DNA of 64,000 bases from Escherichia coli (GTDB lineage: Bacteria; Pseudomonadota; Gammaproteobacteria; Enterobacterales; Enterobacteriaceae). The stretch lies in NCBI RefSeq assembly GCF_051903065.1, contig NZ_CP178438.1; one strand, given 5' to 3'. Position numbers and translations under genes: made by a program. Shown here in pieces: positions 20,477 to 59,914 of this stretch (positions are counted from its first letter, which is position 1; each line of letters starts with the position of its first letter). The notes under the pieces are model-generated. The model saw nothing but the letters and a program-made list of their open reading frames with translations, had not been told where the DNA came from and made no database searches.

Positions 20477-20500
20477 ATAGGTGTCACAAAGGGAGTGACC

Positions 20501-21196
20501 ATGAGAACAGGATGTGAACCGACCCGGTTTGGTAATGAAGCTAAGACCATTATTCACGGTGATGCCCTTGCCGAACTTAAAAAGCTACCTACTGAAAGCG
20601 TCGATCTGATCTTTGCCGACCCACCGTATAACATCGGTAAAAATTTTGATGGTCTGATCGAAGCCTGGAAAGAAGATCTGTTTATCGACTGGCTGTTAGA
20701 AGTGATTGCAGAGTGCCACCGCGTTCTGAAAAAGCAGGGCAGCATGTACATCATGAACAGTACGGAAAACATGCCCTTTATCGATCTCCAGTGCCGCAAG
20801 CTTTTTACCATCAAAAGTCGCATCGTCTGGTCATATGACAGTTCTGGAGTGCAGGCGAAAAAACACTACGGCTCCATGTACGAACCCATCCTGATGATGG
20901 TGAAAGACGCAAAGAACTACACATTCAACGGTGATGCTATTCTGGTAGAAGCCAAAACCGGATCGCAGCGCGCGTTGATCGATTATCGCAAAAATCCTCC
21001 ACAGCCTTACAATCATCAAAAAGTACCGGGTAACGTCTGGGATTTTCCGCGCGTGCGTTATTTGATGGATGAATATGAGAACCACCCGACGCAAAAACCG
21101 GAAGCCTTACTGAAACGCATTATTCTCGCCTCTTCCAACCCAGGCGATATCGTTCTCGACCCGTTTGCCGGTGATGCTGCCAACTTACTGATTTAG
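20501..21196 (+). pseudogene. yhdJ: DNA adenine methyltransferase YhdJ, 3'-truncated by IS1; reading frame runs 8 codons into the IS1 inverted repeat to a TAG
   Basis: MRTGCEPTRFGNEAKTIIHGDAL...DPPY motif...DPFAG then GDAANLLI* encoded by the IS1 end (GGTGATGCTGCCAACTTACTGATTTAG); native YhdJ is ~294 aa by recall. Confidence 0.8.
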
Positions 21197-21224
21197 TGTA
21201 TGATGGTGTTTTTGAGGTGCTCCA

Positions 21225-21500
21225 GTGGCTTCTGTTTCTATCAGCTGTCCCTCCTGTTCAGCTACTGACGGGGTGGTGCGTAACGGCAAAAGCACCGCCG
21301 GACATCAGCGCTATCTCTGCTCTCACTGCCGTAAAACATGGCAACTGCAGTTCACTTACACCGCTTCTCAACCCGGTACGCACCAGAAAATCATTGATAT
21401 GGCCATGAATGGCGTTGGATGCCGGGCAACAGCCCGCATTATGGGCGTTGGCCTCAACACGATTTTACGTCACTTAAAAAACTCAGGCCGCAGTCGGTAA
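21225..21500 (+). CDS. insA: IS1 InsA (transposition inhibitor / N-terminal part of transposase)
   Basis: 91-aa [40 protein letters not shown] with GTG start. Confidence 0.9.
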
Positions 21501-21922
21501 CCTCGCGCATACAGCCGGGCAGTGACGTCATCGTCTGCGCGGAAATGGACGAACAGTGGGGCTATGTCGGGGCTAAATCGCGCCAGCGCTGGCTGTTTTA
21601 CGCGTATGACAGGCTCCGGAAGACGGTTGTTGCGCACGTATTCGGTGAACGCACTATGGCGACGCTGGGGCGTCTTATGAGCCTGCTGTCACCCTTTGAC
21701 GTGGTGATATGGATGACGGATGGCTGGCCGCTGTATGAATCCCGCCTGAAGGGAAAGCTGCACGTAATCAGCAAGCGATATACGCAGCGAATTGAGCGGC
21801 ATAACCTGAATCTGAGGCAGCACCTGGCACGGCTGGGACGGAAGTCGCTGTCGTTCTCAAAATCGGTGGAGCTGCATGACAAAGTCATCGGGCATTATCT
21901 GAACATAAAACACTATCAATAA
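21419..21922 (+). CDS. insB: IS1 InsB reading frame (expressed as InsAB' transposase by -1 frameshift at the A6C motif near 21476)
   Basis: 167-aa ORF in the -1 frame relative to insA; TTAAAAAACTC slippery motif at 21474-21484. Confidence 0.8.
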
Positions 21923-22015
21923 GTTGGAGTCATTACCCGGTGATAAAATGGCATTCAGCTCGTTAATAAGAGAGTTAACTTATTAAGCGTTAGCGTTTAT
22001 TACTGAGGTAACACC

Positions 22016-22237
22016 ATGAAAAGATTAATTCCTGTGGCATTGCTCACCGCATTGCTGGCGGGCTGTGCTCACGATTCGCCCTGCGTTCCGGTTTATGACG
22101 ATCAGGGGCGTCTGGTTCACACCAATACCTGTATGAAAGGCACAACTCAGGATAACTGGGAAACGGCTGGGGCTATTGCTGGCGGAGCAGCAGCTGTTGC
22201 TGGCCTGACGATGGGGATCATCGCTCTGTCGAAATAA
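22016..22237 (+). CDS. yhdV: Small lipoprotein YhdV
   Basis: 73-aa ORF MKRLIPVALLTALLAGCAHDS: lipobox LAGC plus Gly/Ala-rich C-terminus. Confidence 0.75.
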   Translation: MKRLIPVALLTALLAGCAHDSPCVPVYDDQGRLVHTNTCMKGTTQDNWETAGAIAGGAAAVAGLTMGIIALSK

Positions 22238-22667: not shown

Positions 22668-23693
22668 ATGAAAAAGATGATGATAGCCACACTGGCTGCC
22701 GCCAGCGTGCTGCTTGCCGTTGCAAATCAGGCGCATGCTGGCGCGACGCTTGATGCCGTTCAGAAAAAAGGTTTTGTGCAATGCGGGATCAGTGATGGAT
22801 TACCTGGGTTCTCTTATGCCGATGCTGACGGTAAATTTTCAGGTATTGATGTTGATATTTGTCGTGGTGTTGCCGCTGCTGTATTTGGTGACGACACGAA
22901 AGTGAAATATACCCCGCTCACTGCAAAAGAACGCTTCACCGCTTTACAGTCAGGGGAGGTGGATTTGCTCTCCCGTAATACGACCTGGACTTCATCTCGC
23001 GACGCCGGGATGGGAATGGCATTTACTGGCGTCACTTATTACGACGGCATTGGCTTCCTGACGCACGATAAAGCGGGGCTAAAAAGCGCGAAAGAACTGG
23101 ATGGCGCTACCGTCTGTATTCAGGCGGGTACTGATACCGAACTCAACGTTGCCGACTATTTCAAGGCAAACAATATGAAGTACACACCGGTGACTTTCGA
23201 TCGCTCTGACGAATCAGCGAAGGCACTGGAATCTGGTCGCTGCGATACGCTGGCCTCGGATCAGTCGCAACTGTATGCCCTGCGCATCAAATTAAGCAAC
23301 CCGGCTGAATGGATTGTCTTACCGGAGGTTATCTCTAAAGAACCGCTTGGGCCGGTAGTTCGTCGTGGCGATGATGAATGGTTCTCGATTGTACGCTGGA
23401 CGCTTTTCGCCATGCTAAATGCTGAAGAGATGGGCATCAATTCCCAGAACGTCGATGAAAAAGCGGCTAATCCAGCAACGCCTGATATGGCACATCTGCT
23501 GGGTAAAGAAGGCGATTACGGCAAGGATCTGAAGTTGGATAATAAATGGGCCTATAACATCATCAAACAGGTGGGTAACTACTCGGAAATTTTTGAGCGT
23601 AACGTAGGTTCAGAAAGCCCGCTGAAAATTAAACGTGGGCAAAATAATCTCTGGAATAACGGCGGTATTCAGTACGCACCGCCCGTGCGTTAA
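22668..23693 (+). CDS. yhdW: Polar amino-acid ABC transporter, periplasmic substrate-binding protein
   Basis: 341-aa ORF with signal peptide MKKMMIATLAAASVLLAVANQAHA; first gene of a four-gene ABC operon. Confidence 0.85.
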   Translation: MKKMMIATLAAASVLLAVANQAHAGATLDAVQKKGFVQCGISDGLPGFSYADADGKFSGIDVDICRGVAAAVFGDDTKVKYTPLTAKERFTALQSGEVDLLSRNTTWTSSRDAGMGMAFTGVTYYDGIGFLTHDKAGLKSAKELDGATVCIQAGTDTELNVADYFKANNMKYTPVTFDRSDESAKALESGRCDTLASDQSQLYALRIKLSNPAEWIVLPEVISKEPLGPVVRRGDDEWFSIVRWTLFAMLNAEEMGINSQNVDEKAANPATPDMAHLLGKEGDYGKDLKLDNKWAYNIIKQVGNYSEIFERNVGSESPLKIKRGQNNLWNNGGIQYAPPVR

Positions 23694-27040: not shown

Positions 27041-27049
27041 TTTTATTTG

Positions 27050-27169
27050 ATGTCTGGCAGTTCCCTACTCTCGCATGGGGAGTCCCCACACTACCATCGG
27101 CGCTACGGCGTTTCACTTCTGAGTTCGGCATGGGGTCAGGTGGGACCACCGCGCTACTGCCGCCAGACA
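27050..27169 (-). rRNA. rrfF: 5S rRNA, distal copy
   Basis: 120-nt match to reverse complement of E. coli 5S rRNA, with a few variant positions. Confidence 0.9.
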
Positions 27170-27206
27170 AATTCTTTTCTAATCTGCCGAACTTTAACCT
27201 AAAAAG

Positions 27207-27282
27207 TGGTGCTGATACCCAGAGTCGAACTGGGGACCTCACCCTTACCAAGGGTGCGCTCTACCAACTGAGCCATATCAGC
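27207..27282 (-). tRNA. thrV: tRNA-Thr
   Basis: Reverse complement reads GCTGATATGGCTCAGTTGGTAGAGCGCACCCTTGGTAAGGGTGAGGTCCCCAGTTCGACTCTGGGTATCAGCACCA (76 nt). Confidence 0.9.
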
Positions 27283-27294
27283 ACGCTAAATTTG

Positions 27295-27414
27295 ATGCCT
27301 GGCAGTTCCCTACTCTCGCATGGGGAGACCCCACACTACCATCGGCGCTACGGCGTTTCACTTCTGAGTTCGGCATGGGGTCAGGTGGGACCACCGCGCT
27401 ACGGCCGCCAGGCA
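27295..27414 (-). rRNA. rrfD: 5S rRNA
   Basis: 120-nt match to reverse complement of E. coli 5S rRNA. Confidence 0.9.
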
Positions 27415-27506
27415 AATTCTGTTTTATCAGACCGCTTCTGCGTTCTGATTTAATCTGTATCAGGCCGAAAATCTTCTCTCATCCGCCAAAACAGCTTCGG
27501 CGTTGT

Positions 27507-30409
<2,903 letters not shown>

Positions 30410-58672: not shown

Positions 58673-59914
<1,242 letters not shown>

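Follow-up and report, generated by a model that had tools for sequence, protein, structure and literature searches.

A single IS1 joins a truncated yhdJ to the yhdV upstream region in an Escherichia coli strain lacking acrS-acrEF

The locus

We consider here the fis-yhdW locus of Escherichia coli in a stretch of 64,000 nucleotides (NCBI RefSeq assembly GCF_051903065.1, contig NZ_CP178438.1), called the window in its whole length. A single copy of the insertion sequence IS1 joins a truncated yhdJ, a DNA methyltransferase gene, to the upstream region of the lipoprotein gene yhdV, and the genes that lie between the two in K-12, including acrE and acrF of the AcrEF efflux pump, are missing. A preliminary description, made from the sequence alone, had noticed this junction. 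The features, in window coordinates, are as follows.

20501-21169 (+): yhdJ', the first 223 codons of the gene for the orphan N6-adenine DNA methyltransferase YhdJ (M.EcoKII)
20501-21196 (+): chimeric open reading frame (ORF), yhdJ codons 1-223, eight IS1 codons (GDAANLLI) and TAG (21194-21196)
21170-21937 (+): complete IS1A, 768 bp
21170-21192 (+): IRL, the left terminal inverted repeat of IS1, by exact end match
21177-21204: promoter-like CTGCCA-16-TATGAT, overlapping IRL
21225-21500 (+): insA frame, 91 aa, from the ORF list
21419-21922 (+): insB' frame, a 167-aa ORF from the same list
21225-21922: IS1A transposase through programmed frameshift, by RefSeq annotation of an identical copy
21476-21482 (+): AAAAAAC, the -1 frameshift site (A6C) that joins insA to insB' to give the InsAB' transposase, by motif
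21915-21937 (-): IRR, the right terminal inverted repeat of IS1, by exact end match
21938-22015 (+): last 78 bp of the 252-bp acrF-yhdV spacer, aligning to K-12 L004 9313-9390 (MG1655 3,418,312-3,418,389)
22016-22237 (+): yhdV lipoprotein gene, intact

The element has exact matches to the IS1 ends at 21170-21208 (+) and 21899-21937 (-), where 0 are expected by chance and none occurs in shuffled sequence; it is complete, with both terminal repeats, as first described. A search of the window with the IS1 end sequences returned no other copy. The 23-bp terminal repeats (GGTGATGCTGCCAACTTACTGAT and GGTAATGACTCCAACTTATTGAT) are imperfect, matching at 18 of 23 positions, and together with the length and the insA and insB' frames with their -1 frameshift site they are those of the IS1 family. 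What the A6C site does is known from earlier work on IS1 (Sekine and Ohtsubo, 1989, as cited in PMC12428005). The copies in the E. coli genomes 23CRST027, ECNB21-M121 and SCU-172, annotated in RefSeq as IS1A, are 100% identical to that of the window.

The left edge of IS1 abuts yhdJ codon 223, and its right end (21937) lies 78 bp upstream of the yhdV start (22016), the distance originally reported. The element had been placed inside yhdJ, which holds for its left end, touching that gene; the right end lies upstream of yhdV. The 9-bp flanks are unrelated (CCGTTTGCC on the left, CGGTGATAA on the right), as had been noted, and the target-site duplication of 9, sometimes 8, bp that marks a simple insertion is absent. 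This is expected if a deletion came after the insertion. The intact yhdJ of this lineage reads GCC GGT AGC at the break, so that GGT could be either its next codon or the first three nucleotides of IS1; at the right junction one base (C) is common to the IS1 end and the flank. The left junction can therefore be placed only to within 3 bp, and the right one to within 1 bp. A target-site duplication that had been misread was considered and is ruled out: the flanks differ, and only these few bases are shared with the IS1 ends.

The 78 bp are all that yhdV retains of its native upstream DNA, and a consensus scan of 21938-22015 found no outward hybrid promoter from the right end of IS1 toward yhdV. 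Further downstream, yhdW (22668-23693), which carries a pseudogene annotation in MG1655, is here an intact 341-aa ORF for an amino-acid ABC transporter substrate-binding protein.

Truncation of yhdJ

The RefSeq start of yhdJ is the ATG at 20501 (the GTG at 20495 had been taken at first). The truncated product is identical to residues 1-224 of K-12 YhdJ at 221 of 224 positions and diverges after DPFAG, within the C-terminal S-adenosylmethionine-binding motif I (DPFAGSFTT in K-12). As the preliminary description had it, the frame is cut in this motif and runs through eight IS1 codons to a TAG. The product lacks 70 of 294 residues at its C-terminus, and the Pfam N6_N4_Mtase match covers model positions 1-192 of 221 only. 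The loss of the end of the methyltransferase domain supports the earlier view that the enzyme would be inactive.

The corresponding stretch of 23CRST027 is annotated in RefSeq as partial, with its C-terminus missing. At least 24 public contigs, draft or SRA-derived, carry the exact 231-aa fusion product as a called ORF, and most of them stop just after it, inside IS1. The carriers of the fusion ORF form a lineage that is real, if small.

The loss is probably neutral, because yhdJ is reported to be silent in K-12 and its deletion to be without phenotype; YhdJ, an orphan ATGCAT N6-adenine methyltransferase, methylates ATGCAT only on overexpression (PMC4444293).

The deletion and its close relatives

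In MG1655 the order is fis, yhdJ, yhdU, envR/acrS (on the opposite strand), acrE, acrF, yhdV and yhdW, in agreement with the order given in the preliminary description. The window aligns to MG1655 up to 3,412,321 (L004 3322) and the alignment resumes at 3,418,312 (L004 9313); 5,990 bp (3,412,322-3,418,311) are missing. The segment holds the last 216 bp (72 codons) of yhdJ, all of yhdU, envR/acrS, acrE and acrF, and 174 bp of the spacer that separates acrF from yhdV (252 bp in all), so the loss first proposed is borne out by alignment. The acrS, acrE and acrF genes of the AcrEF-TolC system and its AcrS/EnvR repressor, which belong between yhdU and yhdV, are absent from the locus. The norm is the K-12 order, and not a direct adjacency of yhdJ and yhdV: acrF is present at 95% identity or more in about 98.4% of complete E. 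coli records.

A near-identical relative of the window is 23CRST027 (E. coli, human faeces, Ecuador), which is colinear and 99.96% identical to it. The two are not one genome, since over 64 kb they show 19 mismatches and 5 gaps, most of them in the rrn operon, and the window corresponds to no other member of the RefSeq complete-genome set either. A set of 5,426 complete E. coli genomes was searched throughout for junctions and intermediates; in it, both junctions of the window are found together only in 23CRST027 and in 23CRST031, which is likewise near-identical.

The missing genes are not found elsewhere. Nothing in the whole window matches the deleted K-12 segment. A plain acrF search cannot settle absence in a single genome because of cross-matches to acrB. 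A chimeric query was therefore built from the joined flanks and reverse-complemented pieces of yhdJ-3', yhdU, acrS, acrE and acrF, avoiding the only long word shared with acrB. It matched one place in 23CRST027, one in 23CRST031 and two in ECNB21-M121, which keeps yhdJ-3' and yhdU and serves as a positive control; the median is three per genome. The single place in 23CRST027 and 23CRST031 means that the deleted genes have not been relocated on those chromosomes, where yhdJ-3', yhdU, acrS, acrE and the 5' part of acrF were not found; this applies to the chromosomes, plasmids not having been individually inspected.

ECNB21-M121 (meat, China) is a relative of the window at the level of the clone. 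Over 6,770 bp on the left it shows one single-nucleotide polymorphism against the window, and over 5,880 bp on the right, IS1 included, it shows none. Its IS1 and right junction are those of the window, but it keeps yhdJ and yhdU intact: the left junction is at L004 3815, 14 bp past the yhdU stop, and the deletion is of 5,497 bp. The two alleles are therefore nested, with one junction shared and the other different. The right junction is confined, in the genomes searched, to 23CRST027, 23CRST031 and ECNB21-M121, which implies that it is shared by descent and is not a generally reused site.

One IS element exactly at the joint, reference DNA missing on one side of it and no target duplication are the marks of an IS-mediated adjacent deletion. 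A nested pair with a fixed end is the classic signature of IS1 adjacent deletion, and the fixed end is here the yhdV side. It should be added that these strains are rich in IS1: a query containing IS1 matched 37 places in 23CRST027, 37 in 23CRST031 and 28 in ECNB21-M121, vs. a median of 11 per E. coli genome.

The locus across E. coli

Four other sites near the acrF-yhdV spacer carry simple IS1 insertions with direct duplications (9 or 8 bp), in the same orientation as in the window.

NT1F10 lineage: target TAAAGGATA, overlapping the acrF stop
MIN9: target TAAATCTG
HH107: target CACTCTTTA
MB51: target CCCGCTCCC

Insertion near the spacer, which is the first step postulated below, is thus common at this locus. 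In SCU-172, an IS1 is accompanied by a 520-bp deletion into the 3' end of acrF, with no duplication. HH107 differs on its other side too: in place of the yhdJ-acrE block it has, between fis and acrF, a hypothetical gene and a truncated gene for a phage terminase, TerL (L007 1211-3138). The acrF gene itself is intact, and downstream of it lies an IS1B with a 9-bp duplication.

Losses of the acrF region recur in the species. In 86 of 5,427 complete E. coli records the best acrF match is only acrB-like (60-80% identity), so that about 1.6% of complete genomes are wholly without acrF. Fis-side and yhdW-side queries join in 54 genomes, that is, at least 3.6 kb are missing between them. Sixteen distinct large-deletion alleles from this list were inspected, and in 15 of them IS1 is at the joint (the copy in L9 is truncated). 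The sole inspected large deletion without IS1 is that of O157:H7 F3113 (L023 3511-4635), which is IS-free. Its remaining 375-aa ORF, annotated as a resistance-nodulation-division (RND) permease subunit, begins at about the usual yhdJ start and is presumably a fusion of yhdJ to the 3' part of acrF.

Two further nested series, in which one IS1 junction is shared and the other varies, are HL15/USMARC-51688/L9 and PSJ-36/LR-25; in some series of other lineages it is the left junction that is fixed. In PCP06238 (L012 5248-10008), two inverted IS1 copies bracket an inverted yhdJ'-yhdU-acrS-acrE-acrF' segment, and both 9-bp targets occur twice, in inverted orientation. This allele is the inversion counterpart of the deletion in the window. 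With the chimeric query, NZ_OZ547117.1 gives the same same-strand signal as PCP06238.

Some endpoints are used more than once. The position L004 9928 (MG1655 3,418,927; about 22553 of the window, in the yhdV-yhdW spacer) is reused by at least four inspected alleles: the junction ...|CGAAATCGT is present in NCTC9112, BKQWHE, LR-25 and USMARC-51688, with IS1 variants of 91-99.9% identity and in both orientations. In its annotation, 33-6 has the same 131-bp spacing from IS1 to yhdW. The junction of 50EVA is 2 bp off 3,418,927. A second endpoint, L004 9387 (MG1655 3,418,386; window 22012), 4 bp before the yhdV ATG, is found in two alleles, HL15 (-) and J31 (+). The reuse suggests that these endpoints may be IS1 target hot spots.

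Extending this to the whole fis-yhdW interval, as a species-wide hot spot of IS1 rearrangement with site-specific endpoints, is a tentative proposal, to which we give somewhat less than even weight. If it holds, there could be a local signal for IS1 targeting, e.g., DNA that is bent or bound by H-NS or IHF in a silenced A+T rich region; alternatively, there could be selection for losing the silenced acrEF/yhdJ block. The G+C content of the spacers is low: 28% in the one that separates acrS from acrE, and 35% in the surroundings of the acrF-yhdV spacer.

Other features of the window

The differences between the window and 23CRST027 mostly cluster in the 23S gene, as expected from rrn gene conversion or assembly noise. 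The rrnD operon of the window has two 5S rRNA genes with a tRNA-Thr gene between them (27045-27424 and 28676-29260). The tufA gene (58673-59902, -) is an uninterrupted ORF; its 23CRST027 counterpart is annotated as frameshifted, probably from a sequencing error there. In the tldD-yhdP intergenic region (1009-1241), BLAST self-hits reveal a stretch of about 142 bp in two overlapping copies, which are offset by 92 bp and share 95% identity; this may be a tandem or a repetitive extragenic palindromic (REP)-like repeat.

How the deletion may have arisen

The absence of a duplication had led the preliminary description to propose either an IS1-mediated adjacent deletion or recombination between two IS1 copies, and this was the right pair of options. 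With the yhdV side fixed, as ECNB21-M121 shows, we favor the view, as the probable one, that an adjacent deletion anchored at that side followed an insertion into the spacer. IS1A would first have inserted into the A+T rich acrF-yhdV spacer, 78 bp upstream of yhdV, the first 9 bp of the remaining spacer (CGGTGATAA) being the presumed target of the original insertion. Intramolecular replicative transposition, driven by InsAB', would then have proceeded from the left end of IS1 to a target lying leftward on the same chromosome. The left end would have been joined to the new target and the DNA between discarded as a non-replicating circle, which is what adjacent deletion means. The end product is the single IS1 that joins yhdJ codon 223 to the yhdV upstream region, with no target-site duplication. 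The deletion may have been made in one step, or in two by way of an allele like that of ECNB21-M121. The structure, the deletion endpoints, the lack of the genes and the nested relative are seen in the data; we infer both the order of events and the role of transposition rather than recombination.

Several points weigh against this account. RecA-dependent recombination of two direct IS1 copies would leave an identical sequence. A simple insertion at the exact site, with CGGTGATAA on both sides, was not found in the genomes searched. Other endpoints at the locus have been reused by independent events, so that a shared junction alone is no proof of common descent; for the right junction of the window and ECNB21-M121, the proof comes from the near-identical flanks. 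The phenotypic consequences considered below are likewise drawn from the literature and are to be taken as inferred.

The closest competitor is the recombination just mentioned: a second IS1 would have inserted into yhdJ in the same orientation, and RecA-dependent recombination would have deleted the interval, leaving one hybrid IS1. This is possible, if clearly the less probable of the two. Its product is the structure observed, one IS1 between unrelated 9-bp flanks; with about 36 IS1 copies in the lineage new insertions are frequent, and PCP06238 does have two IS1 copies in the interval, though inverted. Against it, IS1 at the yhdJ position of the window is found only in carriers of the deletion and in no genome that retains acrEF, and at none of the inspected loci do two direct IS1 copies flank acrEF. 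Each of the three nested series would moreover need repeated second insertions, each followed by recombination. Intermediates were found for neither route, transposition or recombination.

A reversed order, with IS1 entering yhdJ first and the deletion running rightward from the right IS1 end so that the yhdJ side is the fixed one, is very improbable. Adjacent deletions can start at either end of IS1, and series with a fixed left junction do occur at this locus in other lineages. But ECNB21-M121, with near-identical flanks, has the right junction and the IS1 of the window together with intact yhdJ and yhdU, and no genome searched has the yhdJ junction with a different right junction.

Finally, a misjoining of two contigs ending in IS1, with acrEF elsewhere, is hardly credible: short-read contigs of this allele do break inside IS1, but the same join is present in the window and in two independent complete-genome-level RefSeq assemblies (23CRST027 and 23CRST031), the search of their two chromosomes found none of the missing genes, and the sister allele of ECNB21-M121 has a junction of its own.

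Implications

In sum, the adjacent deletion from the yhdV side remains our preferred account, and it is an ordinary IS1-driven deletion: the element, the class of mechanism and the dispensability of the lost genes were all established before. Beyond the first reading, the comparison anchors the IS1 on the yhdV side and places the allele among the many losses that IS1 has made at this locus. The part that is new, and only modestly so, is the population pattern of recurrent, mostly IS1-made fis-yhdW deletions with reused endpoints.

The strain lacks the AcrEF pump and the AcrS repressor, and its copy of yhdJ, which codes for a silent methylase, is dead. From the literature, it should be unable to recruit AcrEF as a substitute for AcrAB: with acrEF absent, the route of activation by IS insertion, when AcrAB is lost or inhibited, would be closed in this strain. 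More generally, the six RND pumps of K-12 are not universal in E. coli, given the approximately 1.6% of complete genomes without acrF. Most of the inspected losses of the acrF region are IS1-made, which extends a published case in sequence type 11 (ST11). The locus thus offers a natural and well-populated example of nested IS1 deletions that could be used for studying the choice of targets by IS1.

Comparison with known systems

IS1 adjacent deletions have been classically described at the gal and lac regions, where they arise by intramolecular replicative transposition. The window resembles them in having a single IS1 at the joint, no target duplication, and one end that is fixed while the other varies among relatives; the likeness extends to an inversion counterpart at the same locus (PCP06238). 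It differs in being a natural chromosomal allele of fis-yhdW and not the outcome of a laboratory selection, and in that its sequence fits both transposition and recombination between IS1 copies.

With regard to YhdJ (M.EcoKII) of K-12, a beta-class N6-adenine DNA methyltransferase, the N-terminal 223-224 residues of the window protein are 99% identical, the DPPY motif included, whereas the C-terminal 70 residues, from within DPFAGSFTT, are gone.

As for the pump, literature on this allele or on recurrent IS1 loss of acrEF was looked for, and only papers on ST11 acrF and on IS activation turned up. The whole ST11/O157:H7 lineage is without functional AcrF (Pugh et al., 2023, PMC10202319). The same study notes that acrEF is silenced by H-NS and that deletion of acrF adds nothing to the phenotype of a delta-acrB mutant (PMC10202319). 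The likeness is that of a natural E. coli lineage without a working AcrF, an H-NS-silenced pump being dispensable. The difference is in the lesion: in ST11 it is a 45-bp insertion with stop codons in acrF, and acrE and acrS are kept, whereas in the window the acrS-acrEF unit, yhdU and the 3' end of yhdJ have all been deleted by IS1.

Mutants of acrAB or acrB are known to gain efflux resistance through IS insertions upstream of acrEF, according to references given in PMC9330008. Among the reports cited there are activation by IS2 in E. coli (Jellen-Ritter and Kern, 2001) and by IS1 or IS10 in Salmonella (Olliver et al., 2005). These cases share the locus and the class of mobile element with the window, but the effect is the opposite: insertions upstream of acrE switch the operon on, whereas the IS1 of the window removes it.

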